From IMG/VR virus record IMGVR_UViG_3300002301_000039, positions 1-37,767 of that record: 37,767 nucleotides of DNA. One strand, given 5' to 3'. This document shows, piece by piece, positions 3,001 through 34,145 of the stretch. Origin of the DNA: a virus (Duplodnaviria; Caudoviricetes). The stretch's first letter is position 1; the number at the start of each line of letters is the position of its first letter. The notes beneath the pieces were generated by a model. It was not told where the DNA came from. It saw nothing but the letters and a program-made list of their open reading frames with translations, and ran no database searches. The position numbers and the translations under genes were made by a program.

Positions 3001-3674
3001 GCCGCCTGTTGGCCCTGCGTGCCAAGATTCGCTAAGTTAACGGCAGAATTTGACATAAGCTGGCGGTTCTGTAACTGCGTAGCCAAATCAGTTTGTTGTT
3101 GATTATTAAACTCACCTTGCGCCTGAGAATAGCCCTGACCAAGCAAGTTCGAAATCGTGGCATTATTTGCAAGGTTCTGTTGGCGAGCCAATTCCGCTTG
3201 AGCGATGCCAGCGCGATCTCCACCAAAAGCGCCCTGTTGAACGCTATTACCCAAAACCTGTTGCTGTTGTTGAGCATTCGTCTGATTGATGTTAGCAACC
3301 GCCGAATTGACGACATCATTCATGTACGGGTTCATGTACTGATTGACAGCGCCTTGCGAAAATTGCTGCATCTGCATTGGGGTAGCAGCAGCCCCAGCAA
3401 GCCCTGTAGCCGCTTGAAAATATGGGCTGGTATAACCCTGTAATCCGGAGATGTTTTGACCCGCTTGAACCTGATTGGGGTCCATAGGAGCAACCAATCC
3501 CGGATTGTAATTGGCGAATTGAGCCGCCGTAGCGGGTGTATATTGAGGGTATGGTTGGTTAGATTGCGTAGCCGCACGGTTTAAAATATCCGTAAATGCA
3601 GCTTTAATCTGAGGGTTGGCTTGATATGATGTTGAGGCCGACGAACCAAACAGGCTATTGAACAAATTACCCAT
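1..3674 (-). CDS. Large internal virion / DNA ejection (pilot) protein with lytic transglycosylase (SLT) domain; >=1224 aa, 3' end beyond window edge
   Basis: ATG at 3674 overlaps the GNAT stop. Manual translation (MGNLFNSLFGSSASTSYQANPQ...NLARAGNAYANAILSG) stays open to base 3; it is absent from the ORF track because no stop lies in the window. It has a Q/A/N/G-rich N-terminus with YMNPY and SLT motifs AIESNF (E at 1680-1682), GLGQL and AYNQG. Its position after the tail genes is typical of podovirus ejection proteins. Confidence 0.85.
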   Translation of the reverse strand, partial: MGNLFNSLFGSSASTSYQANPQIKAAFTDILNRAATQSNQPYPQYTPATAAQFANYNPGLVAPMDPNQVQAGQNISGLQGYTSPYFQAATGLAGAAATPMQMQQFSQGAVNQYMNPYMNDVVNSAVANINQTNAQQQQQVLGNSVQQGAFGGDRAGIAQAELARQQNLANNATISNLLGQGYSQAQGEFNNQQQTDLATQLQNRQLMSNSAVNLANLGTQGQQAALQQAQAQYGYGTAEQQQQQANLSTAYQQYMQQQAYPYQQLSYYAGLASGAAPALGGTTTGYSPTVAPAGALMGGLSMLGGLTNPGAISSSNPYSAMSAGVSSIGSLFGLKDGGRANYESGGRIGYATGGNPTDKSIIDAYDNYQKVASTPGASSAAIEQAYQTYLSSLQSTSSPWGNTPAAATTPSTTKGKGVSATSNSSGQGLDTQNGKGRETQLNPLASNPQNWGNYGEYGAASVGTYNQPSLMQSLGNILSNFSSVDPVKMSAILNGNNLVAVDSNGEPMLRSDGTPYPNTTSGMSLQEYANQFANGDTSQVMARISTINGAPQIDYSVKDVANGLFNAGTIPAEKLNSTNPELLPQGETPVQSSDGGVDLAASKSASNPGDVASGGVPDANAGNQSSGVLGTRLTGFVGPYGEAAAQAEASNTLPNGTVNALGAIESNFNPNAVNGQSVGLGQLQPKAASEDGVTDRLNPAQAIQGMADYAGQISQGLINNGIANPTIGQIGFAYNQGLGGFNQIMAADPNASAADTFGSNFNNNKFGVSPDATVGEWRNAGIAAYQNAAVPTPSLNAPSTSLAVPLPPTPGDQNYNPSPVVVQNGLITPNADMPSQAPGAMDPMQQQQQQQQQQASDQTAANNAAPSAGSEGHGPSTDSGSIGLDRSVVHDDSGVVSNNEGDSMGDRGNSPSVGDSGGGGEGGGGNKRGGLILAHKHHYDSGGYVPFQMQYGLPDQASIKDTVQSDAGVGVGSLSPTLQALATSGVLSANKGGRIHAANGTGITADDDSGNMWSDPDSQPSFVEKAIGNLGDYLYKKTFQTDPDVAYESTRDTLRNAAVNPIDVDKRIADQNAALEQARPDKRDYSTSETPAKTQPIIPQTRPDEVGGGSNVPPVVRVRPDLGGGGSNVPPVVQNRPNVADLASTDDDQAATTQQNAPANVVAQDTTRTMSDAAQPGFGYVAPPPVDMRQMAAFNFGANLLAGGDFGTNLARAGNAYANAILSG
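275..372. repeat. Two-copy 51-nt coding tandem repeat (RPDEVGGGSNVPPVV / RPDLGGGGSNVPPVV)
   Basis: GTACAACAGGAGGTACGTTTGAACCGCCGCCA is identical at 275 and 326; the period of 51 nt equals 17 codons. Confidence 0.95.
1113..1142 (-). repeat. Poly-Gln tract (Q10) in the ejection protein
   Basis: Ten consecutive CAA/CAG codons in the frame of the large ORF. Confidence 0.9.
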
Positions 3675-4137
3675 GATTTGGAACCCTCGTCATTGAATTA
3701 TTGTACAAGAAGAACGCCCCGGCTTTCGGGAATTGACGTTCATACAGTTTTACTTTTGCCTCTGTCCGATAGTTGGATACAACACCAATAATTAAAGGCA
3801 GTTCCATCTCGTCAGAAATGTTCTTCGCAAATGAAATTAAACTTTTTGCTCGCGTTGACCGCCGATAATCAGGGTGAACAAAGTTGAATATTTCATTCAA
3901 AAACCACTGAGATGAATACCATAATTGGTCCGGAATCAGGCAAATCATGCCTTCCAGACCATTTTCACCGTCAATGATGCCAACAACGCCATGGCGGCGG
4001 CTTGTTGAACGGTCGATAAAATCTTGGGTTTTTTCTTCGTCCCATTCAAAAATGCCGTTTTCTTCATGCATCAGTTTAAAGAATGCAAGGACGGCATCCT
4101 GATCTTCCGGACCAGCTATGCGAACGTGATAATCCAT
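3667..4137 (-). CDS. GNAT-family acetyltransferase-like protein
   Basis: GNAT-like pattern: N-terminal VRIAGPED, motif A FVHPDYRR, C-terminal KLYER. Confidence 0.8.
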   Translation of the reverse strand: MDYHVRIAGPEDQDAVLAFFKLMHEENGIFEWDEEKTQDFIDRSTSRRHGVVGIIDGENGLEGMICLIPDQLWYSSQWFLNEIFNFVHPDYRRSTRAKSLISFAKNISDEMELPLIIGVVSNYRTEAKVKLYERQFPKAGAFFLYNNSMTRVPNHG

Positions 4138-4655
4138 CAGAAATTTTCCTTTGCAAACCCGGCAAAATGGGTTAGATTGCTAACATGGAAAAAATTAAAC
4201 ATGACGAACTCCTTCGCATCCTTCGATATGAAAAAGACACTGGCTTGTTTTTTTGGAACACGCCAAGGCAAAAAGTGCGAGTTGGGCAGCAAGCTGGATA
4301 TCTTCATCATAAAGGGTACATTAACCTTGAAATTAACAAGAAATTTTATGCTGCCCATCGTTTGGCTTGGTTTTATTGTACAGGAAAATGGCCTACGGAT
4401 CAAATTGATCATATAAATTGCAATAGAAGCGATAACAGAATTGATAATTTGCGCGAGGCAAATAACGGGCAAAATCAAACAAACACTCAAATTAGGAATA
4501 AACTTGGGTGCAAAGGTGTTGTTTACAGAAAATCCCTTAAACAAAAACCGTTTATTGCGAAAATTAGGAGCAACAAAAAAGACATCCATATTGGATGTTT
4601 TGCAACTCTTGAAGAAGCTGCTGATGCTTATAAAAATTTTGCCCAAAAACTGCAT
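4137..4655 (-). CDS. Candidate antisense bridge ORF over HNH-1 (172 aa, hydrophobic)
   Basis: In-register antisense ORF on the late-operon strand. The ATG is 17 nt after the upstream TAG, and its TGA overlaps the GNAT ATG (TGATG). Confidence 0.4.
   Translation of the reverse strand: MQFLGKIFISISSFFKSCKTSNMDVFFVAPNFRNKRFLFKGFSVNNTFAPKFIPNLSVCLILPVICLAQIINSVIASIAIYMINLIRRPFSCTIKPSQTMGSIKFLVNFKVNVPFMMKISSLLPNSHFLPWRVPKKQASVFFISKDAKEFVMFNFFHVSNLTHFAGFAKENF
4151..4184 (+). promoter_or_regulatory. Putative sigma70 promoter giving leaderless HNH-1 mRNA
   Basis: TTGCAA-N16-TAGATT-N6-ATG with no Shine-Dalgarno; AACCC-N8-GGGTT dyad across the spacer. Confidence 0.5.
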
Positions 4656-4676
4656 GGTGAATTTGCTCGCTTCTAA
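4185..4676 (+). CDS. HNH homing endonuclease with C-terminal AP2-like DNA-binding domain (HNH-1), inverted in the late operon
   Basis: AHRLAW...IDHINCNRSDNRIDNLREA HNH motif; C-terminal KGV...HIGCFATLEEAADAY...HGEF AP2-like segment. Confidence 0.92.
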   Translation: MEKIKHDELLRILRYEKDTGLFFWNTPRQKVRVGQQAGYLHHKGYINLEINKKFYAAHRLAWFYCTGKWPTDQIDHINCNRSDNRIDNLREANNGQNQTNTQIRNKLGCKGVVYRKSLKQKPFIAKIRSNKKDIHIGCFATLEEAADAYKNFAQKLHGEFARF

Positions 4677-5278
4677 TCGCGTCTTGGGCCGGGAAGTTTG
4701 CTAAGTGTTTTAACCAGATGTTTCCGGACGCCAACAACGAAGTTATCCAGATAGTCGTGGCCTTTTTGCATGCTACCATTGCCCAATTTGCGAACAATAT
4801 CAGGATGAATAACATATTCACCGCCAGCAGCAACAATTGGTACTGGGCGGTAGTTACCAGCAGTAACGGGACCACCTTCAGCTTTTGCCGGAGAAAACGT
4901 CGATGATGCGGAGTTTGCTGAAGCAGGGCTATTTCCAATGCCAAACAGTTTCTGCATTTGGCCATATTCGCCCAAACTAGGCGGCGTTCCGGGAGAAGCG
5001 GTAGGAACCTTATTGCTTACGCCCCAAGGACCGGATGTAAACATATTGCTGATCAACTTGCTGCCAGCCAATGTGTTACCTTCGCCAAGACCGGATACAA
5101 TGTCAGCGGGAAGGACGTAGGAGCCTTCCAGAACGTTCATTGGAATATGGTCAGTACGACCGCCAACAGCCATCGTAATCGGTCCTACGTGGCATGGTGT
5201 GGATTTTTCGCGAGAAACTTTATCAGCCGCCTCAATCGGGCTACCACCGGATTTGTATAAATTGAACTTGTTCGTCAT
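4673..5278 (-). CDS. Virion-associated protein made of two tandem xxxGG...G[ES]YV modules
   Basis: GGAGG SD. Internal repeat: EGSYVLPADIVSGLGEG / GGEYVIHPDIVRKLGNG, preceded by YKSGG and KAEGG respectively. Confidence 0.8.
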   Translation of the reverse strand: MTNKFNLYKSGGSPIEAADKVSREKSTPCHVGPITMAVGGRTDHIPMNVLEGSYVLPADIVSGLGEGNTLAGSKLISNMFTSGPWGVSNKVPTASPGTPPSLGEYGQMQKLFGIGNSPASANSASSTFSPAKAEGGPVTAGNYRPVPIVAAGGEYVIHPDIVRKLGNGSMQKGHDYLDNFVVGVRKHLVKTLSKLPGPRRD

Positions 5279-5335
5279 TGCCGCCTCCGATATTCTTTAT
5301 AAATACAATAAAATTCTGTTTTTTGATAGCCCTGT

Positions 5336-5683
5336 TTAACTATAAGATACAGCTACTATCATTCCTGATCCGGGAACTATAACAATGCCGTTCTTCACGG
5401 GCATCATGACAGTTTGAATCCCAACAGTATTTGCAATAACGTATAGCCTATTCCCGTTGACTGCCCCCGCAACACTGTTGGCATCATAGACCATTCCGGT
5501 TGTTGACCCCGCCACAATGACGGAAATCTTTGCAACCCAACCAAGATTGGTTTTCAAATAGGTCGTAGCAGCTATTTCACTGCTATTGGCAGCACCAGCA
5601 AGATTAAGCGTTGTATTGTTAACGCTACTGATACTTTGAACACCGTTGCGTTGAACGCTGAGGATATCGTCTAGGGATGCGAT
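5336..5683 (-). CDS. Phage structural protein (115 aa), apparent non-canonical ATC start
   Basis: AGGAGG (5689-5694), 5 nt, then ATC GCA TCC CTA GAC GAT. The frame is open for 42 codons upstream of the TTG used by the ORF track, with no ATG/GTG/TTG in that stretch. Confidence 0.75.
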   Translation of the reverse strand: MASLDDILSVQRNGVQSISSVNNTTLNLAGAANSSEIAATTYLKTNLGWVAKISVIVAGSTTGMVYDANSVAGAVNGNRLYVIANTVGIQTVMMPVKNGIVIVPGSGMIVAVSYS

Positions 5684-5692
5684 GATAGCCTC

Positions 5693-6232
5693 CTACTTGA
5701 CTAATGTCATCTGAGATGACATTGTTGATTTATGGAAAATGAGATTACAGCACAGCGTGTTTTTGAACTTCTGGATTATAATCCAGAAACCGGAAATTTT
5801 ATATGGAAAATAAAACGTAGGGGACGCCGAAAAATTGGTATGCTCGCAGGATGCATTCATCCACATGGATATGTTCGCATTAGTATTGATTATCGTTTGT
5901 ATAATGCCCAGAGATTGGCTTGGCTTTTTATAACTGGAAAATGGCCAAATGGATTGGTTGACCATATTGACGGCAATCGTTCCAATAATCGTGCTAATAA
6001 TTTGCGAGAGTGCAATCATATTCAAAATGGAGCAAACCGAAAAATTCCAACATCCAATACATCTGGATACAAAGGTGTTTCTAAAATAAAATCTAACGGA
6101 AAATGGGGGGCGTGGATTAAAGTTTCGGGAAAGAGCAAAAACCTTGGGTGCAATTTTGACACTCCTGAACAAGCCTATGAGGCTTACAAAAAAGCATCCG
6201 AAAAAATGCATGGAGAGTTTGGACGCTACCAT
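5693..6232 (-). CDS. Candidate antisense bridge ORF over HNH-2 (179 aa, MVASKLSMHFFGC...)
   Basis: The ATG overlaps the TAA of the 708-aa tail gene (TAATG). The ORF is in register with HNH-2, and its TAG lies in the SD of the next late gene. Confidence 0.45.
   Translation of the reverse strand: MVASKLSMHFFGCFFVSLIGLFRSVKIAPKVFALSRNFNPRPPFSVRFYFRNTFVSRCIGCWNFSVCSILNMIALSQIISTIIGTIAVNMVNQSIWPFSSYKKPSQSLGIIQTIINTNANISMWMNASCEHTNFSASPTFYFPYKISGFWIIIQKFKNTLCCNLIFHKSTMSSQMTLVK
5697..5731 (+). promoter_or_regulatory. Putative leaderless promoter of HNH-2 with a perfect 21-bp palindrome (operator-like)
   Basis: TTGACT-N17-CATTGT-N6-ATG; AATGTCATCT-G-AGATGACATT at 5703-5723. Confidence 0.55.
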
Positions 6233-6235
6233 TAG
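5732..6235 (+). CDS. HNH homing endonuclease with AP2-like domain (HNH-2), inverted in the late operon
   Basis: AQRLAW...VDHIDGNRSNNRANNLRE HNH motif; NTSGYKGV...NLGC.FDTPEQAYEAY...HGEF. Confidence 0.92.
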   Translation: MENEITAQRVFELLDYNPETGNFIWKIKRRGRRKIGMLAGCIHPHGYVRISIDYRLYNAQRLAWLFITGKWPNGLVDHIDGNRSNNRANNLRECNHIQNGANRKIPTSNTSGYKGVSKIKSNGKWGAWIKVSGKSKNLGCNFDTPEQAYEAYKKASEKMHGEFGRYH

Positions 6236-8358
6236 TACTTCCCATCCGGTGCTACGCGATACCTGATACCGCCTAACCGCCAAAATGATCCCGTATCTTG
6301 GGATGAAATGTTGATTGCTACCAAACGCGCCCTGATACGACACGATATATACTCAGTCGCTTGCGTCATTGGGAATGTGGCGGATGATACCGCATTACTA
6401 GGCGCACCTGAGTAAAAACCAGCGGAAGATAAGGCATCCGAAGCATAATTTGTCCAATAAACGGTTACATAAACGGTGGCATTTTGGTTACCACTGTATG
6501 TTCCCCATTTCATATCGGGCCAAATTTGGTCGATAAACATGATGTTATCGCCATCCGCCACACTGAAAAAGCCAGTTTGCATAGACGAAAGCATAGGCTG
6601 AGTAGTCGTGCCAGACGCGGCATCGTAGCCTATTTCATGCTGATATAGATAATTGTCAGTACCAGCGCCGATAGGAGGGCCAAGAACAGATTGGTCAATC
6701 CAAGCACTACGGCCAAGAGAACCAAAATCCCACTGCTGGATAGCAACGTTAAATTTGACATAACTGTCGTTTTCGCCCGTGCTGCTATTAACAGAAGGGT
6801 AGAACCAAGTGATCTCATTGAATTGAGAATTGACAGCACATCTGATATTTTGGGTATACGGAATTCCATTCGAACCAACTCCCGTGTTCAAATTTTGAAA
6901 AATAACGTCCCAAACAGGACATGGAATAGCCTGTGGTCCATTGCCAGCATTCATAAAAAATTGCTTCTGGGACATCCAGAAGACAATATTATTCAATTGA
7001 CCGACACATTTGCGGCTAATTGCACCGCAGTTTGAACCGATTTTATTAAACCCATATACCAAAGGAGCGCCAATATATTGCATCGCCCAAAGGTCTAAGT
7101 CCGTCCAAATAAGTCCTTGCTGCGCACCTTGTATGCACGTAACGATCTTGGAACCCGATGGAATACGATAAGAACCCGCCTGATTCGTGGCGGTTCCAAT
7201 CCATGTCGTGCTATCCGCAATATCAGACCAACGGATTAAAAGCGGGTCTTGTTGAAGAGTAAACGACGAACCCCATGCGACAACTTGACGCTCTGGCATA
7301 GCGACAAATATGCCGTCATTAACCAAAGGAGCAGACCCGCTGACTAACTGGGCATTCTGAATTTGGGTATTTGGCGTCCAAGAATAGATAGCCCCGCCTA
7401 CTGGGCAAGCAATCAGATTCTGACCGAAGTTATCCAATGTCCAGTCTGTGGCGGTAATAGGTGTACCCGGTACAGATGGTTGTGTAACGCCGGAACCAAA
7501 TCCGCCAGAACCAAATCCACCAATACCAAAACCTGTACCAACTTGGCTTGGGCCAACCGCGATAAAAAACTCAGCGTTGATGTTTCCGCCATTGATAGAA
7601 GTAGGTCCAGCCGATGAACTGGCCGTATTGACTGCGGAAAATGTAAACTGACCAGAAGTTAAACTTCCCAGTGTGGCGGGGGTATCGATAACAGTATAAA
7701 GCCCAAATAACGTCAATCCGCCAATTGATGTAGATACACCAATGTAAAACTGGCTTCCGGGATTATACGTATTATTCGCTAAATATCCGACAATAATGGA
7801 TGATCCACTAACTGTCGTAAACGTATAAGATGCCCCAGCATTACTTACTGTGGATGTAGCGGGTGAACCAGCGGAAATCGTATAAGACGTTCCAGATGCC
7901 GTCAGGATTTGATACGAACCCGTCAATATAAGACCACCAATAGAAACCGGGGTTACGTAATAAACGTAATCCAGATTTGATGGGCTTATGTTGGTATCAA
8001 CAACAGAAACAGTGCTACTACCACTTGTCGTCGAAAAATTAGGCGCAGAGTTGGTTACCGTAGTCTGTGGAGTGATAACCGAATTACTGCCGTTTGTAAG
8101 GACATTAAGTGATGTTGTGCAACCAACAGCAAGGTGGTTGATTGCATTGAGATCAGCCCATCCTTTTAAAGCCCTAATAGGGGAAGTATAAGGGCTATTA
8201 CGATATGCTACCCAACCGCCTAACTTCTGAGGCAAACCCATCTGGTTTCTATCGGGCATAAACCGGATAAGATTGGACGAAGAAAGCGCAGCCTCATTAA
8301 GAGTCTGCGTCTTAATAAGATCGACGCCCGGAACCAGTTTAAGTGTTGTATGGGCCAT
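6232..8358 (-). CDS. Tail tubular/nozzle protein (P22 gp10 / T7 gp12-like)
   Basis: 708 aa with beta-propeller-like segments (WTLDNFGQNLIA, IRWSD, LIWTD, VFWMS); lies between the adaptor and ejection genes. Confidence 0.7.
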   Translation of the reverse strand: MAHTTLKLVPGVDLIKTQTLNEAALSSSNLIRFMPDRNQMGLPQKLGGWVAYRNSPYTSPIRALKGWADLNAINHLAVGCTTSLNVLTNGSNSVITPQTTVTNSAPNFSTTSGSSTVSVVDTNISPSNLDYVYYVTPVSIGGLILTGSYQILTASGTSYTISAGSPATSTVSNAGASYTFTTVSGSSIIVGYLANNTYNPGSQFYIGVSTSIGGLTLFGLYTVIDTPATLGSLTSGQFTFSAVNTASSSAGPTSINGGNINAEFFIAVGPSQVGTGFGIGGFGSGGFGSGVTQPSVPGTPITATDWTLDNFGQNLIACPVGGAIYSWTPNTQIQNAQLVSGSAPLVNDGIFVAMPERQVVAWGSSFTLQQDPLLIRWSDIADSTTWIGTATNQAGSYRIPSGSKIVTCIQGAQQGLIWTDLDLWAMQYIGAPLVYGFNKIGSNCGAISRKCVGQLNNIVFWMSQKQFFMNAGNGPQAIPCPVWDVIFQNLNTGVGSNGIPYTQNIRCAVNSQFNEITWFYPSVNSSTGENDSYVKFNVAIQQWDFGSLGRSAWIDQSVLGPPIGAGTDNYLYQHEIGYDAASGTTTQPMLSSMQTGFFSVADGDNIMFIDQIWPDMKWGTYSGNQNATVYVTVYWTNYASDALSSAGFYSGAPSNAVSSATFPMTQATEYISCRIRARLVAINISSQDTGSFWRLGGIRYRVAPDGKY

Positions 8359-19817: not shown

Positions 19818-20600
19818 TTAGAAGATAGTGCCGTCGTTCGATACCAATACACCCTCAGCAGAGTAACCAGCAGCATATGCGGTTCCGGTTGCTGACATCT
19901 GCCATTGAATGTCGGTTTTTGCCACGTAAACGTTTGGATACCAACGTTCGCTGATAAAGTTTGCGACAAATGGGCGTTGCGTAACCAAAGAGTTAACGCC
20001 AGCAGGGTTTACGGTCCAAGTGCGGTAGGTTCCATACGAACCGCTGGTGTAAACCATGTTCGTCCAACCCTGAGCACGTTTCAAATAGAAGGTGAAACCA
20101 TTTGGAACCGTATAAATTGCAGATTGGGTACGACCAATGCCGATGTTGATCTGGGCATAAGTAATAGTTTTGCCCGTATCTTGAAGCTTGATTGTGCCAA
20201 CATTGCTTGTACCAGCCGTTGGGACAGCCGTTATAATCATGCTATTGATACGAAGATAACTATTGGTCGTATTAACGCCCGTATAGTTAGCACCTGTCAA
20301 AGCAATAGATTCAGAAATTTGGTTGTAATTGGCATCCAAACCATTGATCAAAACCGTGACACCAGCATCAGATGCCGATGTGCTGAGCAGGGTCATCGTG
20401 ATTGCAGAAGCTGGATAGGTGTAAGTCGTTGCATTTTCCCAAACTGGGATAAACCCAGAGGTAGGAATAGCCGCCTGATAACCAAAAATGCTTACGGTCG
20501 AATGACCTGTAATTTGGCTACGAGAAACTTGAAGTTCGAAGGGTTCTGTGACGCCACGCTTGGTGACGGAATCATTGATTACATAGGCTTGGCTGGTCAT
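19818..20600 (-). CDS. Hypothetical structural protein (260 aa)
   Basis: Beta-rich T/S/G composition, TAATG-coupled within the late operon. Confidence 0.7.
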   Translation of the reverse strand: MTSQAYVINDSVTKRGVTEPFELQVSRSQITGHSTVSIFGYQAAIPTSGFIPVWENATTYTYPASAITMTLLSTSASDAGVTVLINGLDANYNQISESIALTGANYTGVNTTNSYLRINSMIITAVPTAGTSNVGTIKLQDTGKTITYAQINIGIGRTQSAIYTVPNGFTFYLKRAQGWTNMVYTSGSYGTYRTWTVNPAGVNSLVTQRPFVANFISERWYPNVYVAKTDIQWQMSATGTAYAAGYSAEGVLVSNDGTIF

Positions 20601-20764
20601 TATTTACCCCTTTTACGTGCTACTGCTGCATTATCTACCAGATTAGGGTAGGGACGACCTGCCGCCCTTGCATGTGCTTTCGCGGTTGACTTCTGTTTCT
20701 CAGTTAAATGCTTGTGATGAGCATTTTTTTCAGCGGGATGTTCCCAAAAAGGCTTCGTAGCCAT
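20600..20764 (-). CDS. Small basic His/Lys-rich protein (54 aa; not in ORF track)
   Basis: MATKPFWEHPAEKNAHHKHLTEKQKSTAKAHARAAGRPYPNLVDNAAVARKRGK; TAATG overlaps at both ends. Confidence 0.85.
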   Translation of the reverse strand: MATKPFWEHPAEKNAHHKHLTEKQKSTAKAHARAAGRPYPNLVDNAAVARKRGK

Positions 20765-21667: not shown

Positions 21668-22903
21668 TTATGCCTGTGTGACGCCGTACAGGCCAGTGAT
21701 GGACCCGACATTGTATGGTTGAACCGTTTGGCGAACGACAAAACGGGTAGTGGCAAGTGTTGGCGTGAACGTGTACGTGCCACGAACGTCGCCTGTCGTG
21801 CTGGTTGCATAGGTCGTAACCGCCGCAACATAACCAGAGTTAGCCGTGACAACCGCAGGGTTGACAGAGGCAGACTGGTTAATCAGCAAATCACCAAAGT
21901 TGTCAGAACGGAGAGGAAGACCAAAGATATTGGTCGTGCCAACGCTATAAGTAACCGTATCGGCTACCGAAGGGATGACAGACGTAATATATTTGAAGGC
22001 TTTCTTACCGTTGACAGCAGTGTTCTGAGTCGAACTCGTGGTCAGCGAGATCACTTCCGTCATTGGGTAGCCATAAATGTCAAACCCGGAGACGGTGAAA
22101 GTGATGCTTGCAGTTGGAGTCGAAGACACAGGGGTAACACTTACAGCCCGTGCGCTGAGAGCCTGTGGGTTCCACAACGAAATCGTCTGAGCAGAACCGA
22201 ATGGAATCTGCGAACCAGTGATTGCGTCGTTTGTAGCCGAACCCAAAGCAGCAGTGATAGTAAGCTGAGAACCGCTTGTACCAGCCGCAACAGGAGCGCC
22301 GCTAACCGTGTAGGAACCCGTAAAGCCAGCCGCCGAATTGCCGTTGGATGCGTTGACCGTCGGGCCGTAACCCGTGATCGTCGTACCAGCAGCAATGCCA
22401 GTGCCAGAAATCGTCATTCCGATGGTGAGCGGAAGGTTTCCGTTCGTGGAAACAATCAGAATGTTACCAGCGGTGCCGCTAGTGCCATTTGAAATGTAAC
22501 CCGTAACCGAAGTGTAAGCATCAAGAGCCAAAAGGCCAGTGACCTGAACACCAATGTCAGCACGAACAATCGACTGGCCAACCGCTACTGCCGTGGAGGC
22601 AGAAGAAGAAGAAACCAGAGTCATGCCCGCAGTGAGCATACCAGAGGTAATGGCCTGTGCCGCTGCGATAGCAACGCCAGAAGCCGCAGGAGGGGTCGTA
22701 TTCAACGTCAAAACGTTGTCTACGCCAAGCCAACCAAGCGTGTTAGCCCCAAAATTCTGGCCCGGTGTATAGCTGTAAACTGGGCGTGGGTCTAAAAGAC
22801 CCATACCCGAATAAAACAGCGACGGACCAGCCTCAGGATTATAGTCAGCGAATGGAGCCTGTCCAAAGCTAACATACGGACCGGAGTTTGCTGTAATAGA
22901 CAT
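21668..22903 (-). CDS. Minor capsid / head decoration protein (411 aa)
   Basis: Directly downstream of the MCP with AAGGAG SD; T/A/G/S-rich; contains a beta module similar to one in the 486-aa fibre. Confidence 0.65.
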   Translation of the reverse strand: MSITANSGPYVSFGQAPFADYNPEAGPSLFYSGMGLLDPRPVYSYTPGQNFGANTLGWLGVDNVLTLNTTPPAASGVAIAAAQAITSGMLTAGMTLVSSSSASTAVAVGQSIVRADIGVQVTGLLALDAYTSVTGYISNGTSGTAGNILIVSTNGNLPLTIGMTISGTGIAAGTTITGYGPTVNASNGNSAAGFTGSYTVSGAPVAAGTSGSQLTITAALGSATNDAITGSQIPFGSAQTISLWNPQALSARAVSVTPVSSTPTASITFTVSGFDIYGYPMTEVISLTTSSTQNTAVNGKKAFKYITSVIPSVADTVTYSVGTTNIFGLPLRSDNFGDLLINQSASVNPAVVTANSGYVAAVTTYATSTTGDVRGTYTFTPTLATTRFVVRQTVQPYNVGSITGLYGVTQA

Positions 22904-22913
22904 AAGCTACTCC

Positions 22914-23828
22914 TTACGAGGTTGGGAATGAACCGTAGATCGAACGCCAGTTGTAGTAGCCAACCGAATACCGCTCATAGCCCTTGACGAGAAGGTTATC
23001 AGTCGTGAAGTCCACTTGCATGTCCATTTCGAATGGAACGCGCTCCATATAGACAAGGCCCTTGATGTTAGTCAGGAGGAACCATGCATAGTTGGAGGTC
23101 AAGAAGTCCATGACCATGTAGCCTTCAGGCAAACCGCCGCCGGTAAACAAGATCGCGTTGGTGTCGTTATCTGCTGTACCCGGACGAAGCTGCGTCTTCG
23201 TGAGACGAATAGCAACTGGCTCCAAGGAAGGAGGAACGATCAACTTACGACCACGGGCGAAAATCTTGTTGCCAGCGATATCGCGGAAGTTCTGGCGAAT
23301 GGCGACCATTGCGTTGAGCAGGGTCGATTCGTTCAGATCAACCTGAACCGTAGGCGTGTTCGCAATCGTGCTGCCGTCAATAGGGTGAGCAGTGGAGCAG
23401 AGTGCTACACCGTCGCCGCCGATGGCTGCATTATACGTGGTCGCCGTGTTCAGAACGTTGGCGGCATAGATTTCCTTAGTCTGATGGAACGATTCCGTCA
23501 GGCCGAGGTTGGTAGGCTTGAACTGAGCCTTGTAAAGGTTGTCGTCGATTGCCTTACGGGTAATCGCGTAACCAAGGGCAATTTCGTTATGTTCCTGATT
23601 GTAAACATAACGTTCGCCAGCGGCGTTATCGAACTGAGTGTTGCCGCCTTCGGTCTTCAACTGTGCAAGACCAAGGTAGCGCATTTCAGCCGTACGTTCC
23701 AGAGCCATGTTCGACTTGGTGATTTCAAACACCTTGTCGTACTGGCTTGGGATCATGTTATATTTGCCTTCCACGCCCCGCAAACCGGGGAGGAGAAGGT
23801 CACGAATCTGACTAAGATTGACAGCCAT
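22914..23828 (-). CDS. Major capsid protein (HK97 fold, Mu gpT-like family)
   Basis: 304 aa, AAGGAG SD, strongly C-ending codons; LLLPGL, GGDGVALCSTAHP, KLIVPPSL, ERYSVG..NWR motifs. Confidence 0.88.
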   Translation of the reverse strand: MAVNLSQIRDLLLPGLRGVEGKYNMIPSQYDKVFEITKSNMALERTAEMRYLGLAQLKTEGGNTQFDNAAGERYVYNQEHNEIALGYAITRKAIDDNLYKAQFKPTNLGLTESFHQTKEIYAANVLNTATTYNAAIGGDGVALCSTAHPIDGSTIANTPTVQVDLNESTLLNAMVAIRQNFRDIAGNKIFARGRKLIVPPSLEPVAIRLTKTQLRPGTADNDTNAILFTGGGLPEGYMVMDFLTSNYAWFLLTNIKGLVYMERVPFEMDMQVDFTTDNLLVKGYERYSVGYYNWRSIYGSFPTS

Positions 23829-23841
23829 TTGAGCCTACTCC

Positions 23842-24453
23842 TTATGAACCAGCAGTGATGCGGAAGGTCTGGTTGTTGAAACCAACGATGATGCTGTTGT
23901 AAGGCGTCGTCGTGTCGGTGCCATTTGCTCCCGGTGGGAACGTAACCAGAGAAAGAATGCGGAATGCATACGTGGTCGAAGTGCTGATGTTCGCTTGGTT
24001 AGCATAAGCCGTCGACTGACCCGACAAAAGCTGGGTGTTGGTTGGCGAAGCTGGCGAATTACCGGCGTAGTCAATGTTCGAATTGACCTGAGCCTGAGTA
24101 ACAGCAGCAGAACCCGACGACTGAACCTTGAAGGTAGCCTGTGGGTCGACGATGACGTAAGCGGTGATGACAGTTCCCGATGGAACGGTCTGGCTGGCTG
24201 GCCAATAAGGGGACCAAGTCACCTTGTTAACCGAAGCGTTGTAGAACTCGCAGCCTACGAAAACGCCGAGAACTGCGGCAGTACCAGCAGCACCAGCAAT
24301 TACATAGCCGCCAGAAATCTGTACGGGGTCGCCAGAGAAAATGTTGGAAGAATAACCGCTAGTAATCTGATACGACGACTGACCCAAAGAACCAGTACGC
24401 CCGTCCAGAAAGCCAGCAAGCTGGAAACCATTGGGCGCAAGAGTGTTCGCCAT
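23842..24453 (-). CDS. Capsid cement/auxiliary capsid protein
   Basis: 203 aa immediately upstream of the MCP; APNGF, NIFSGDPV, GVFVGCEF, VIVDP motifs; AAGGAG SD. Confidence 0.7.
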   Translation of the reverse strand: MANTLAPNGFQLAGFLDGRTGSLGQSSYQITSGYSSNIFSGDPVQISGGYVIAGAAGTAAVLGVFVGCEFYNASVNKVTWSPYWPASQTVPSGTVITAYVIVDPQATFKVQSSGSAAVTQAQVNSNIDYAGNSPASPTNTQLLSGQSTAYANQANISTSTTYAFRILSLVTFPPGANGTDTTTPYNSIIVGFNNQTFRITAGS

Positions 24454-24472
24454 AGGTTGCTCCTTTTCGGTA

Positions 24473-24539
24473 GGCTACATCTAAGACAGCGCGTCTTTTT
24501 GTAACCAACGAGGGGAAGCCCACTACGGCGCGTAGCGGA
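24473..24539 (-). promoter_or_regulatory. Structured 5' leader of the capsid operon: two hairpins with ACGCGCYGU apices
   Basis: UCCGCUACG-CGC-CGUAGUGGG and GGUUACA-AA-AAGAC-GCGCU-GUCUU-AGA-UGUAGCC. Confidence 0.55.
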
Positions 24540-25206: not shown

Positions 25207-26154
25207 TTACCCCATCGCACCCTTGTTCATCTGATAAAGTTTACCTTCCAAGTACTCTTCATCCGTCATATCCATTGCCATAGCATGATCACGCTCTGCT
25301 GGGGTCAATGTCATGGTGACGGTCTGGCCTGAACGGAAGGTTTGAGCAGCATTTGTCCGCGAAACAGGTGCAGCCGCCATAGCTTGACGCTGACGAACCT
25401 GAGAAACAGGTGCTTGTTGCGGTTCACCTTCGTAAACACGGCTTTCAATGTGCGCAAAGTACTCTGGGCTGTCAGGTTGAATCTTCCTAGCAACCGCTTC
25501 GTAGTGTGCGGCAGTCATAAGAGCCGTCTTATCAGGGTCCGCCAACACATCACGGTGCGAACGGAGCCATGCTTGCGAGGTTGGACTCTTAACAGCCGCG
25601 ATTTGAGCTTCAATAGGGTCAGAAGGTTGTTGTTCAAAGTGTGGCTGAGGCTGACGGCGCTGCTGTTCAAGCATTTGCCGTTCATAATTCAGTTTTTCTT
25701 CGACAGCTTCCTTACCTTGTGCCAATTGCATAAGGCGGGATTCCACCTGAGCCATCTGACGTTGCAATTTAGCGGCTTTGCTGTAATCACCATCCGCCAA
25801 AGTGGCGGCATAATCACGTTCCAGCATCTCAGCATCACGTTCAAAGCTGGCAATTGCGTTAACAAATGCTGTTAACTGGTTGTCTTGAGCCTGAACTTGG
25901 TAGGTTTTTACTTCCTGCTTGGCTTCATGAGCAAACTTTTCAGCTTGCGCCCGTGCAAGGCGGGCTTCATCAGCTTCACGACGTTTTTCATCCAACTGGC
26001 GGCGAAGAAGTTCAACACCTTCGTCCGGTTGTTTGGCTGGTTCTGCTGCTGGTTCTGTTTTTGCAACGGGATCAGCACCTAAATCGTAGTCGTCCTTGAC
26101 CGGAAGCGGCACAGGAGACTTAACTGTAACTTCAATTGCTTCTAAATCTGACAT
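25207..26154 (-). CDS. Capsid scaffolding protein
   Basis: 315 aa, acidic A/E/Q coiled coil, C-terminal LTPAE...MDMTDEEY helix; position upstream of the capsid genes. Confidence 0.7.
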   Translation of the reverse strand: MSDLEAIEVTVKSPVPLPVKDDYDLGADPVAKTEPAAEPAKQPDEGVELLRRQLDEKRREADEARLARAQAEKFAHEAKQEVKTYQVQAQDNQLTAFVNAIASFERDAEMLERDYAATLADGDYSKAAKLQRQMAQVESRLMQLAQGKEAVEEKLNYERQMLEQQRRQPQPHFEQQPSDPIEAQIAAVKSPTSQAWLRSHRDVLADPDKTALMTAAHYEAVARKIQPDSPEYFAHIESRVYEGEPQQAPVSQVRQRQAMAAAPVSRTNAAQTFRSGQTVTMTLTPAERDHAMAMDMTDEEYLEGKLYQMNKGAMG

Positions 26155-26164
26155 TTATGCCCCC

Positions 26165-26563
26165 TTAGTACGCTGTGTCTGGCTCTGGGATAGCCAATTT
26201 GACGTTAACATCCTGAATAATCTGGCAAAGAACACCATTAATATTCAGTTTCCAGCCATCTGAGGAGCGAAGAACAATCCACTGGCCTACTTCGACATCC
26301 TGACCAGCAAACGCAGTGCGGTCATCGTCCACAAAAGCAAGAGGACCTTTTTTCAAAACAAGAACTACCTTGCCCTGATAATCATCTTCTTTGCGGGTAT
26401 TGTCAGAAAGGAAAATGCCTGAGGCAGTGCGCTCTGGACGCTTATAAACAGCGCAGAGAATGTTGTTATTAAAGACCTGCACCTTGGAAATATCACCAAT
26501 CGCAGCTTTCAACTCCTCTGCCGGATCACCGACATGGAGCATTTTCATATTAGCAGTTTTCAT
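26165..26563 (-). CDS. groES: GroES-like co-chaperonin
   Basis: PERTASGIFL...GKVVLVLKKGPLAF...VEVGQWIV Cpn10 pattern; start re-assigned to the ATG at 26563, just after the upstream stop. Confidence 0.8.
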   Translation of the reverse strand: MKTANMKMLHVGDPAEELKAAIGDISKVQVFNNNILCAVYKRPERTASGIFLSDNTRKEDDYQGKVVLVLKKGPLAFVDDDRTAFAGQDVEVGQWIVLRSSDGWKLNINGVLCQIIQDVNVKLAIPEPDTAY

Positions 26564-26564
26564 T

Positions 26565-26777
26565 TTATCTCGCTTTTTGGTTAATGCCGACGATGTCATC
26601 CATCGTCTCTTTTGCCCAGATAAGTGCGTCGGATAGTCCTTTTAGATACCCGACACGGTTTTTGTATTCCTCGTAGTTTTGTGCAGAACCCGCCAGAATG
26701 CTCTCTGAAAGGTTCTGCTTTTCCTCTTCAATACGCTCCTGCAATTTGCGGTACAGAAGCAAGTCTAGTGACGCCAT
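26565..26777 (-). CDS. Small helical protein (70 aa, MASLDLLLY...)
   Basis: AAGGAG SD before the ATG at 26777; NYEEYKNRVGYLKGL motif. Confidence 0.8.
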   Translation of the reverse strand: MASLDLLLYRKLQERIEEEKQNLSESILAGSAQNYEEYKNRVGYLKGLSDALIWAKETMDDIVGINQKAR

Positions 26778-28126: not shown

Positions 28127-30430
28127 TTAGGAATTGTCTTTCAATTCCTTAACCTCAGGTTTTACTATTTGTTCAGCCTGAGAAGCGTTCTCTGGATGAA
28201 CTGCAATTTCACGGGCAAGCTGTAACATAGCTATCCGTTCTTTGCTTTCTCTGTCTTTAGCACGGTTCTGAGCATCAGCCGCTGAGTCTACTTCCTTAAC
28301 CTTAACTTCTGCCATTTTTGCTTGTGCGTCAACCATTTTTGCTTGCGCCATGATCATCTCAGGGTCATGGAAGCCTGATGGAGCCTGTTCGCCTCTGGCA
28401 ATACGTTCCTTACTGGCGCGATCTTCATTGTTGTGATGAATATCCGCCAAGGCCTCAACTTTTTTAATCTTGACTTCTTCTTGCCGACTTTGCGCATCCA
28501 TCATCTTGGCTTGCGCAACAATCATCATTGGATCAGGAGGCGCAGCTTGAGGCGGCATTGGAGGATTGAACAAGTCCATCGCATCTTCAATACCAAGCAT
28601 CGTAAGAATACGTTCATCCACTTTACGTGGGTCATACAATTCAGGATTAGCCTGTTGAAGCTGTTTAATTGCCATAGCTTTTTGAATACGAACTGCCTGA
28701 GATGGCGTATTCGGGTCAGCTACAGGGACAAGGTTGATGTTGTCCAATGCGTTTTGCAGCGTTTCAGGCGTCCATTGATATGCTGGATACTTATTATTTT
28801 CCCAGAATGCTTCTGGGCATTCACGGAACAAGTCTTTCAGCAGGTTAAACTCACGGGCCTGAGCCGCATGCATGCGCTTATGAACCGCAGAGATGACCTT
28901 CTGGGCCTGTTCAATCAACGCAATGGTTGTACCTACCGGAGCTTCAGCATTGCCCTCACCGACGTTCGTTTCCGTTGTGGAGGCCAAACGCTGACCGCTG
29001 GCTTCCATTAATTGGATAAGGTTCAGGAACTGACCGTCCACGCTACGATAAGGCAATGGCATAACGGCAGACTGAATTGGACCGCCAGCCGTATCAATTG
29101 GCATGCCGCCACCCGGAGGAATGCGGAATTCATTGGTATTCTGCCGCCCAGCCTGTTTTGCATACAAAAATCCGGGGAAGTTTGCAAACATCCCGTTATC
29201 AATGCACATACGCCAGCCAGCCGTAAGCGCCATTGTGGTGTTACCCACAAGGTGAAGCAGCCCCAAACCGTAAAAACCGAAGCCGGGTACAAATATAAAA
29301 TCAACAAAGACTTGGCGACGGAGGCACTGTTCATCATCTTCTTTCCACCAACGGCGTATTTCCAAAATTTCCGTTGAGGTCTTATCAATCGTTACGCGGT
29401 ATGGAAGTTGAAGCCCTGTTGGCCCTTCATCGTCTTCGTGTTCAAATCCCGGAATGTCCAATTCACAGTAACATTCGTAGATTTCACGGAGTTGGTTGTC
29501 CGTACTTGCAAGATTATTTGGTATCACACCCTGCATTTGTTGGATTTTCTCTTCCACCACGTTCATTTTGGGTGGTTGAGCGCTGGAAAGAGGCACATCA
29601 CGGTACATTCCCACCAATTGCAACCTTTTCAGGGTGCTTGGCGGCATTTTAATCACATGAGTAATGCGCTGCGCAGTCGTAGCGGTTGTTTCAGCATTGG
29701 AGATAATGATCTCAGGGATGCTGACAAACTCCGATACCGGACGACGACGAATCGGGCAGTAGTAAACCTTCTTAAAGGTAGTGCCGCCAAAACCCAACGC
29801 AAAGAACATACGTTCCGTATCCGGATAATATTCCGATGCGGTCGTTGTAAGATAATGGTTAAAATCCCGCTCAAACGCCGCAGCCTGTGCGTCAATGTTA
29901 GCACTGCTTAAACCGTCGTTCCGAATTTTTACGGGGCCTCCAGAAGGCAGCAATTCGCCACGCGCATTGGCTTGGAACCGTACAATTGACTCCAAAAGCA
30001 ACGGATGGCGGACAGTTGCTTGCCCTTCCACCGCCGTAGAACCATCAGAAGCGTTGGAACGTGGCTGTTCAATCTTGGTTCCCAGCAAATCAAGACCAGC
30101 TTTATACTGTTCCAACAATTCAGCGCGGGATTCATTGTCCTGTTCAATCAAACGGATAAGATCTGACGAAATCATCCCAAGCGTTGACGGATTAATCCGT
30201 TTCGCAAGGTTTTCGTGAAAATCATCGTCGCTATTATCCGTTTGTTCTGGCGCACCAAAACTAATGGTTACGGAACCATCCGGAAGTTCCACCTTAACAT
30301 AAGGAGACTTTGGATTTACTTCCGTTTTGAGATTGCCCTCAGCCGACATATCCATGTCGATTGCGCCAAAATCGTCCGGAGTACTACCCAAGACGGGGGT
30401 CTGCCGTATGTTCATAGGGGCTAATGGCAT
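28127..30430 (-). CDS. Portal protein (P22-like, with C-terminal helical barrel)
   Basis: 767 aa directly after TerL; HPLLLE, FKKVYY, PGFGFYGLGL and APVGTT motifs; Q/A/K-rich helical C-terminus. Confidence 0.88.
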   Translation of the reverse strand: MPLAPMNIRQTPVLGSTPDDFGAIDMDMSAEGNLKTEVNPKSPYVKVELPDGSVTISFGAPEQTDNSDDDFHENLAKRINPSTLGMISSDLIRLIEQDNESRAELLEQYKAGLDLLGTKIEQPRSNASDGSTAVEGQATVRHPLLLESIVRFQANARGELLPSGGPVKIRNDGLSSANIDAQAAAFERDFNHYLTTTASEYYPDTERMFFALGFGGTTFKKVYYCPIRRRPVSEFVSIPEIIISNAETTATTAQRITHVIKMPPSTLKRLQLVGMYRDVPLSSAQPPKMNVVEEKIQQMQGVIPNNLASTDNQLREIYECYCELDIPGFEHEDDEGPTGLQLPYRVTIDKTSTEILEIRRWWKEDDEQCLRRQVFVDFIFVPGFGFYGLGLLHLVGNTTMALTAGWRMCIDNGMFANFPGFLYAKQAGRQNTNEFRIPPGGGMPIDTAGGPIQSAVMPLPYRSVDGQFLNLIQLMEASGQRLASTTETNVGEGNAEAPVGTTIALIEQAQKVISAVHKRMHAAQAREFNLLKDLFRECPEAFWENNKYPAYQWTPETLQNALDNINLVPVADPNTPSQAVRIQKAMAIKQLQQANPELYDPRKVDERILTMLGIEDAMDLFNPPMPPQAAPPDPMMIVAQAKMMDAQSRQEEVKIKKVEALADIHHNNEDRASKERIARGEQAPSGFHDPEMIMAQAKMVDAQAKMAEVKVKEVDSAADAQNRAKDRESKERIAMLQLAREIAVHPENASQAEQIVKPEVKELKDNS

Positions 30431-32047: not shown

Positions 32048-32534
32048 AAACTTCACCTTCAATAATCTGTGGGCCGCCAATTTTGGTCTTTACGCGGTTC
32101 ATAAGGTGAATGCGTTCTTCATAAGATAGGTCGCCAAAGTTGAAAACAACACTTGGGCGGGAAAATTCTTGCGAATCCGGCTTATCTTTCCACCCCATAC
32201 GGGCGCGGGTCAGGTAAATACCCGCATTAATGGAGGACGGAGTGTCTTTCAGGGCTTGCTGGTAAAGGTTTTCAACAACAAGAGCATCAGCAATCTGCCG
32301 CCCGTTTTTAATTTCATGGCCGTATTCCCGCGTAAGCCACGCACGGGATACCCCGACAATGTCTGCGATTTCGTCTATTGTATTGCCCCGTTTAGCGAGG
32401 CCCATGACGGTGCGGCGCACCATATCATCATCAGGAATCTTTCTTTTGCGACCTCGTTTTGGCCCCGCCCCTTTGGGATTTGTTTCGGTTATTTCAGTCG
32501 GGACGACGCGGTTTTTGTTCTTGATCGCTTTCAT
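32025..32534 (-). CDS. terS: Terminase small subunit
   Basis: HTH TIDEIADIVGVSRAWL, VVENLYQQA, IYLTRARMGWKD; overlaps the TerL start; AAGGAG SD. Confidence 0.8.
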   Translation of the reverse strand: MKAIKNKNRVVPTEITETNPKGAGPKRGRKRKIPDDDMVRRTVMGLAKRGNTIDEIADIVGVSRAWLTREYGHEIKNGRQIADALVVENLYQQALKDTPSSINAGIYLTRARMGWKDKPDSQEFSRPSVVFNFGDLSYEERIHLMNRVKTKIGGPQIIEGEVYENETDE

Positions 32535-32551
32535 TACTCGGCTCCTTTGCG

Positions 32552-32584
32552 TTGACTATATCGCAAAAGTTGATAATAATGCAA
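32552..32584. promoter_or_regulatory. Overlapping divergent promoters between terS and the accessory operon
   Basis: Plus strand TTGACT-N17-AATAAT (32552-32580); minus strand TTGCAT-N18-TATAGT (32584-32555). Confidence 0.55.
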
Positions 32585-33316: not shown

Positions 33317-33693
33317 CAGATAAAAAGGGATGGTTAGGACCGTACCCTCCTAATAGCCGCCATGCGGATAAGGTTACGATTGATGAGATCGTAAGATTGC
33401 GGGCGGAAAATGAACAGTTGCGGGAAACGTTACGGCTTATGCCAAAAACGATTGCTGATGCCGCCGACGAGATTGAACGGTTAAGGAATAAAAATAAAAC
33501 AATGGCCTTAGATCATATCGCATCCGAAGGCGAATGGTGCGATTTAATTGGAGAGAAGTACGATGAAATTAAACGGTTACGGGACGCATTGAGTGATGTG
33601 AATAAGGGTATCAATCAATGGTTACATGATGGGTCTCCTATCAAACGGGCTTTGTTGAAATTAATTGATGATGCTTTGGAAAAGGGGGAGTGA
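33313..33693 (+). CDS. Hypothetical protein with three DEIxRLR repeats
   Basis: Start re-assigned to MTDKKG (ATGA overlap); ends ALEKGE. Confidence 0.7.
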   Translation: MTDKKGWLGPYPPNSRHADKVTIDEIVRLRAENEQLRETLRLMPKTIADAADEIERLRNKNKTMALDHIASEGEWCDLIGEKYDEIKRLRDALSDVNKGINQWLHDGSPIKRALLKLIDDALEKGE

Positions 33694-34145
33694 TGATTTT
33701 ACCAGCGCAGACAATCAGGCAGCTTATGCCGATTCAGCCTTTTCATGAACGAACCGTTGTCAACGGGATGTCGTTTGGCCTGTCACATGCGGGATACGAT
33801 GTACGGATTGCGGAAAACATTACGCTATGGCCAAAGAATTTTTCATTGGCGTCTACGATTGAGGAATTTGATATTCCCAACGATCTGATCGCAATGGTTC
33901 ACGATAAGTCTACATGGGCTAGGCGGGGTCTTTCGTTGTTCAATACGGTGATTGAGCCGGGTTGGAAGGGTTTCCTGACGCTTGAACTTGTAAACAATTC
34001 TGATGAGTTGCTAGTAATTGAGGCGGGTTCACCCATTGCACAGATTGTTTTTATGCGGTTGGAAGAACCTACGGAAAAGCCTTACAGCGGCAAGTATCAG
34101 GATCAGAAGGCTGGGCCACAACCAGCATTGAAGGAGGGTGAGTGA
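33690..34145 (+). CDS. dcd: dCTP deaminase (trimeric dUTPase superfamily)
   Basis: AGYDVR, DKSTWARRGL, VIEPGWKGFLTLEL, IAQIVF, YSGKYQDQ. Confidence 0.9.
   Translation: MMILPAQTIRQLMPIQPFHERTVVNGMSFGLSHAGYDVRIAENITLWPKNFSLASTIEEFDIPNDLIAMVHDKSTWARRGLSLFNTVIEPGWKGFLTLELVNNSDELLVIEAGSPIAQIVFMRLEEPTEKPYSGKYQDQKAGPQPALKEGE

Follow-up and report, generated by a model that had tools for sequence, protein, structure and literature searches.

We analyzed a window of 37,767 nucleotides (nt), positions 1 to 37,767 of the IMG/VR virus record IMGVR_UViG_3300002301_000039, a phage contig whose terminase, portal, capsid, adaptor and tail genes lie on the minus strand. Two plus-strand genes, HNH-1 (4185-4676) and HNH-2 (5732-6235), are located inside this late operon. 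Both encode predicted HNH-AP2 endonucleases (PHROG 99, E-values of 1e-61 and 4e-64) and matched PF13392 above the cut-off, while PF00847 (AP2) was found below its cut-off of 33.3 bits (E-values of 6e-5 and 2e-7; 23.7 and 31.6 bits). Residues D77, H78, N90 and N99 of the HNH_3 D-H..N..N core were invariant in an alignment (A1) that included both window proteins. Each insert is an opposite-strand gene flanked by co-oriented genes, the arrangement that defines a noncontiguous operon. On the late strand, HNH-2 is preceded by a 708-aa virion structural gene of the nozzle/stabilisation type (6232-8358, minus; PHROG 3287), homologues of which are annotated as 'phage stabilization protein', and followed by a 115-codon gene with an ATC start (5336-5683, minus). 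HNH-1 lies between a 201-aa gene (4673-5278, minus), which has homologues in relatives and no family match in Pfam or PHROG, and a GNAT-like acetyltransferase gene (3667-4137, minus; PHROG 1249, E-value of 7e-12). A related annotated record has the same gene order, which then reaches an internal virion protein, and the genes behind the inserts are therefore probably essential.

On the late strand, each insert is spanned by an open reading frame (ORF) in register antisense to the nuclease gene, hereafter called a bridge. Bridge 1 (4137-4655, minus; 172 aa) has its ATG 17 nt past the TAG of the 201-aa gene and ends in TGATG on the acetyltransferase start. Bridge 2 (5693-6232, minus; 179 aa) begins in a TAATG shared with the stop of the 708-aa gene, and its TAG overlaps the Shine-Dalgarno sequence AGGAGG (5694-5689, minus) of the 115-codon gene, whose ATC start is in frame with the bridge, 9 nt past this TAG. 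A contig from another run (X2, 5403-5769) showed no differing letter at the ATC start; across four runs compared with the window, the matching pieces were short and contained no informative joint. Both bridge ATGs are complements of His CAT codons near the ends of the HNH genes. All coordinates were re-read, and the spanning frames, the junctions at both inserts and the C-terminal His codons were as the original prediction, made on this DNA alone, had described them. The stop-free frames are also open upstream of the named ATGs (from 4700 and 6352).

The two HNH genes have a G+C content at third codon positions (GC3) of 0.30, and our recount confirmed that none of their 21 Leu codons is TTA or CTA and none of their 12 Ser codons is TCA. 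The chance of such an absence is 5e-4 under the codon use of the window itself and 6e-8 under that of 79 AT-rich co-oriented HNH-AP2 homologues, none of which (0/79) is open in antisense (minimum of 2 stops, mean of 7.9). It had been cautioned that shadow ORFs over other genes make openness weak evidence. In-register shadow ORFs do lie over several co-oriented late genes of the window (GC3 of 0.41-0.63), and long ones with few TTA, CTA or TCA codons were noted on the plus strand at 19905-20651, 21719-22492, 23016-23858, 23995-24504, 25342-25875, 28433-29011, 29408-29911 and 32169-32555. The second half of the caution did not stand: because the HNH genes are AT-rich, antisense openness is strong evidence here.

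The same property was compared among homologues of either orientation. The first set, seeded from inverted clades, comprised 270 full-length matches from several scans plus phage Xp10, reduced to 204 distinct complete genes, with flanking genes called by a simple purpose-made caller that errs in GC-rich DNA. Outside the strict comparison were 55 of the 204 (orientation unclear, convergent or divergent, or the other flank only) and 26 one-flank cases. The annotation of Xp10 shows no inverted HNH gene, and this phage served as a co-oriented control only. By automatic classification, 30 of 40 inverted genes were open in antisense (6.1 expected) compared with 3 of 84 co-oriented genes (6.7 expected); the other classes gave 6/8 (one-flank inverted), 1/18 (one-flank co-oriented), 4/39 (unclear) and 2/11 (convergent). 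Junction reading moved four genes to the inverted class by hand, those of L097, L140 and L157 (open) and one of the L099 genes (closed; L numbers designate loci). With these and the one-flank cases, the counts became 39/52 inverted versus 3/101 co-oriented. The contrast persisted among clusters at 60% identity (12/22, two of them one-of-two ties, versus 3/89; p = 6e-8) and among genes with GC3 ≤ 0.55 (28/38 versus 0/72). The expectation that co-oriented homologues would be less often open was thus borne out, with 7 of 217 open when pooled over sets, and inverted genes in similar late operons mostly open. A-ending codons of the other four-fold boxes were used normally (0.12-0.36), and the other two antisense frames carried about nine stops in both orientation classes. 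Three clades held 54, 83 and 75 distinct Leu/Ser column-codon states, none of them TTA, CTA or TCA. On a quick tree (149 rows, with L001 in place of the window's HNH-1; 23 of 146 branches starred), the inverted label was scattered, with 17 changes, at least three of them forced by well-supported branches. The inverted arrangement likely arose repeatedly.

In 32 of the 35 open cases for which a start could be called, the distance between the bridge stop and the following start was -4 to +18 nt, compared with 5/70 for the other frames, and by cluster the values were 11/12 versus 0/24. Two of the three misses proved on reading to be start mis-calls, and in the third (L150) a short ORF carries on from the bridge. 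Downstream junctions were of several types: the stop shared one or four bases with the start, adjoined it directly or fell inside the Shine-Dalgarno sequence. The insertion sites also varied (adaptor-nozzle, nozzle-next gene, capsid-next gene, lysin-nozzle and others). A further record with an insert at the adaptor-nozzle site, MW202483, was also open. Inverted genes with a few antisense stops were often covered by relays of shorter ORFs (L178, L161, L301, L307), the relay of L178 consisting of three ORFs, the last of which ends in a copy of the native junction. In L178 and L268, the insert's downstream junction resembles the 3' end of the upstream gene itself, as though copied from it, and the coupling signal may have been duplicated on insertion. 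L099 has a virion gene with an inverted HNH gene on each side; a 236-codon ORF bridges one of them fully, and the other is partly bridged.

All six loci with nucleases 81-90% identical (L001-L006) keep the antisense ORF, at only 59-66% identity, and L001 retains bridge 1 with the same junctions. At site 1, 35 of 39 junctions had gaps of -1 to +9, three were occupied and one was a 33-nt scar. Site 2 was represented by 45 distinct junctions, namely 35 native, four occupied and six HNH-less with an ATC start, and 31 of the 35 native ones had a one-base stop-start overlap. To judge from these junctions, the empty alleles are tightly coupled at both sites. Occupancy is optional at a fixed site, as defines homing endonucleases (4/45 and 3/39 junctions at sites 2 and 1). 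In native alleles, the 115-codon gene starts with ATG, GTG or TTG overlapping the nozzle stop, and occupied alleles retain this overlap as the bridge start; the ATG of bridge 2, at the native start position of that gene, was therefore inherited from the displaced gene and did not newly evolve. Conservation of the ATC start and AGGAGG extends over all HNH-2 alleles, the six HNH-less alleles and L271, where a second HNH lineage occupies the same site (window 5681-5694, minus; L165, L175, L190, L218, L241, L244, L271). The same Shine-Dalgarno sequence is present in 10/10 ATC alleles, and five HNH-less ones have two consecutive stops before it, which speaks for genuine initiation at the ATC rather than read-through. 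Loss of an HNH gene may have left the HNH-less ATC alleles behind as scars. A close relative (L165-L168/L166; 93% identical between the sites) lacks both HNH genes and has short scars at the sites, the site-2 scar holding a 19-codon ORF that runs from the native ATG and ends just inside the next gene.

Of the 39 open inverted genes, 36 have an ATG no more than 36 nt from the HNH 3' end, compared with 106 of 217 co-oriented genes, and the C-terminal His was encoded by CAT over CAC in 34/38 cases by gene. The junctions had originally been put forward as the main support for the bridges. This held at their downstream ends, where the bridge terminates at the start of the following gene. Less weight than claimed attaches to the 5' junctions, because the bridge 2 ATG is native to the displaced gene and the His behind the bridge 1 ATG is common in the family (167/217 co-oriented homologues have a His in the last 14 residues).

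Promoter-like boxes were recognized by eye before both nuclease genes. Those of HNH-1 (TTGCAA, 16 nt, TAGATT; 4151-4178, plus) end 6 nt before the ATG, and the gene is thus predicted to be leaderless; those of HNH-2 (TTGACT, 17 nt, CATTGT; 5697-5725, plus) also end 6 nt before the ATG, and the -10 box reads CATAAT in L003. The boxes appeared conserved on inspection by eye, and a consensus promoter scan gave no match over threshold at either HNH start. A perfect 21-bp palindrome (5703-5723), kept across the HNH-2 clade, separates the predicted -35 and -10 boxes of HNH-2 and is a candidate operator for self-repression. Five loci with otherwise distant HNH genes (L099, L147, L157, L289, L303) share a leader before the HNH start, in which a conserved short motif accompanies a GC-rich hairpin and a Shine-Dalgarno sequence, and two bridges run through the hairpin. 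Elsewhere in the window, a GroES-like gene lies between the portal and capsid modules (26165-26599, minus) and a dCTP deaminase gene at 33690-34145 (plus).

Taken together, the bridge is a real, selected feature, and the mechanism outlined here is likely. After finishing the upstream late gene, ribosomes would reinitiate at the bridge ATG, through the overlap at site 2 and across 17 nt at site 1, a gap within the restart window of seven codons given in the available part of a T4 study (PMC2988022). They would then traverse the insert of about 540 nt by translating the bridge, whose product would be filler, and at the bridge stop be handed to the start of the next gene. The gain would be twofold: coupled initiation of the next virion gene would be preserved, and the late transcript would be spared termination or decay on naked RNA. 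Expression of the HNH gene itself would depend on a small opposite-strand promoter of its own, probably leaderless. Use of the in-register frame probably reflects two properties: silent changes can eliminate all of its stops (TTA, CTA and TCA on the HNH strand), and the C-terminal His of the family provides an ATG or GTG. Selection for ribosome movement across the insert, as initially proposed, is supported by the orientation contrast and by the bridge stop at the next start. That a stop-free antisense frame reaching the next start, at a coupled junction, lets ribosomes cross the insert to the downstream gene is in our opinion the probable explanation.

Other explanations fit parts of these data. 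Ribosome traffic might instead protect the late mRNA from forming a duplex with the antisense HNH transcript, and so from double-strand cleavage, or help to silence the HNH promoter late in infection. The predicted opposite-strand promoter does sit inside the bridge, and mutual antisense control is established in noncontiguous operons according to the available parts of two reports (PMC11087260, PMC11364771). However, shielding leaves unexplained the bridge stop at the next start (32/35), often without a Shine-Dalgarno sequence visible by eye, and we regard it as unlikely. The antisense ORFs could also be true overlapping genes with functional proteins, for example one restraining the nuclease, since they span 172-179 aa, have proper starts and persist in every close orthologue. 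Bridge 2 is matched at 55-66% by four database proteins, as the same shadow frame would be, and the antisense ORF has no family match (no Pfam or PHROG match for bridge 1). At matched HNH identity, the antisense identity of 107 inverted pairs was no higher than that of a small control of 15 co-oriented pairs (0.37 versus 0.44, 0.45 versus 0.51 and 0.67 versus 0.78), four-fold sites were no more conserved in inverted pairs, and relays split the ORF. A coding role is thus quite improbable, and the label 'dual-coding' given to these genes was overstated, no protein-level constraint on the antisense peptide being seen against the 15-pair control. The lack of extra peptide conservation and the relays of short ORFs make it likely that what is selected is ribosome passage and not a protein.

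GC-rich genes carry shadow antisense ORFs in the same in-register frame, and the bridges might be neutral by-products of codon bias or go back to a single ancestral accident passed on among related inserts. Shadow ORFs over several late genes of the window, the poorly resolved tree and a held-out set without significant enrichment (described below) speak for this. Unlike such shadow ORFs, the bridges end at coupled junctions and lie over AT-rich genes, and none of the 79 AT-rich co-oriented homologues is open. Moreover, codons turn over within clades, never to stops, and several distinct insertion sites and junction types are involved. We consider neutrality very improbable, and for the podovirus-type set it is largely refuted. 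Finally, splicing out of the site-2 insert, or read-through of the TAG, would give the 115-codon gene back its ATG: the gene has none of its own, and the insert separates the native ATG from codon 2 in frame. No intron was matched in Rfam at family level (one chance-level match only), about 500 of the 549 nt of the insert are HNH coding sequence, and the spacers of 47-48 nt are too short for a ribozyme core. Against read-through stand the five HNH-less alleles in which two consecutive stops precede AGGAGG and ATC, and L165, which reaches the ATC in another frame. Most other insertion sites are out of frame. Both forms of this explanation were rejected as scarcely credible.

Several observations weigh against ribosome passage or against its generality among inverted HNH genes. 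The openness rate of the first set is not a population rate, given how the set was seeded, and 13 of its 52 inverted genes are unbridged. The held-out set (212 distinct genes, 176 of them less than 60% identical to the first set, without hand correction and with 52 of the 176 unclassed) gave 2/8 open inverted clusters, both GC-rich, versus 4/101 co-oriented ones (p = 0.06), and 0/5 versus 0/72 at GC3 ≤ 0.55. Among known phages, T4 segD is inverted and unbridged (longest antisense ORF of 43 aa, nine in-register stops), as are gp03 of Salmonella phage LPSTLL and genes 32 and 70 of Ralstonia phage QkW1. Inverted inserts can therefore persist without a bridge, and these genes and the held-out set argue against the bridge as a rule. 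In L166, the close relative without HNH-1, the 33-nt gap contains no ATG. The preference for His CAT was not significant by cluster (10/13 versus 80/145, p = 0.15). The excess of C over G on the late strand is mild (C of 0.19-0.22, G of 0.16-0.17) and gives no strong indication of Rho loading. Flanking-gene families, from a scan of 53 of the 85 flanking proteins in which many had no match, suggest that most bridged cases neighbor head-closure, adaptor, capsid or portal genes of podovirus type, and that several of the unbridged ones are next to neck, tape-measure or baseplate genes. The trait appears to cluster in podovirus-type late operons. Our guess is that these phages need a bridge because they lack antitermination. 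No cultured carrier of a bridged insert was found in the few records examined out of 3449 and 3147 matching phage records; the sites are unoccupied in DSL-LC05 and MW202675.

Group I introns and inteins are shelters for homing endonucleases that make the insert near-neutral for host gene expression. No splicing element is present here, and neutrality would come from translation over the insert. Engineered non-polar cassettes have the same aim, the bridges being natural. The closest likenesses are to noncontiguous operons and to the free-standing homing endonucleases of T4. In noncontiguous operons, an opposite-strand gene with its own predicted promoter is nested; they are known in phages, including a late operon (phi80 tai), according to the available portions of their accounts (PMC11034616, PMC11087260, PMC11364771). 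These portions mention no bridging ORF, and one of them describes nested regions as untranslated, with read-through ascribed to uncoupled transcription in Gram-positives (PMC11034616). By comparison, the gene nested here encodes a predicted mobile nuclease, and a coupled ORF occupies the operon strand; we infer from the coupled empty alleles that one transcript crosses both nested HNH genes. As far as the accessible part of the T4 study goes (PMC2988022), the free-standing homing endonucleases of that phage are likewise intergenic and must limit harm to their neighbors. T4 nrdA/mobE has a stop-start overlap, although mobE is co-oriented and is itself the coupled gene, and segD is inverted between capsid genes, but lies among terminators without an antisense bridge. 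Our literature search, with supplements and subscription papers outside its reach, found no description of such antisense bridges. If the bridges act as proposed, selection would maintain a reading frame of about 500 nt whose protein is irrelevant, and they would offer a direct test of a puzzle raised in the available part of one of these accounts (PMC11034616), namely how the transcript of an operon, with no ribosomes on it, gets past a nested antisense gene. The absence of TTA, CTA and TCA together with a placed stop could also serve as a sequence-only signal for phage junctions that need continuous translation, and the bridge as a natural design for non-polar inserts. On balance, we lean toward the bridges representing, besides introns and inteins, a third way for selfish nucleases to reside in essential operons, namely backward insertion at a coupled junction with a throw-away antisense frame, which would have arisen repeatedly in podovirus-type late operons and would explain how polarity is avoided in noncontiguous operons when transcription is coupled to translation.

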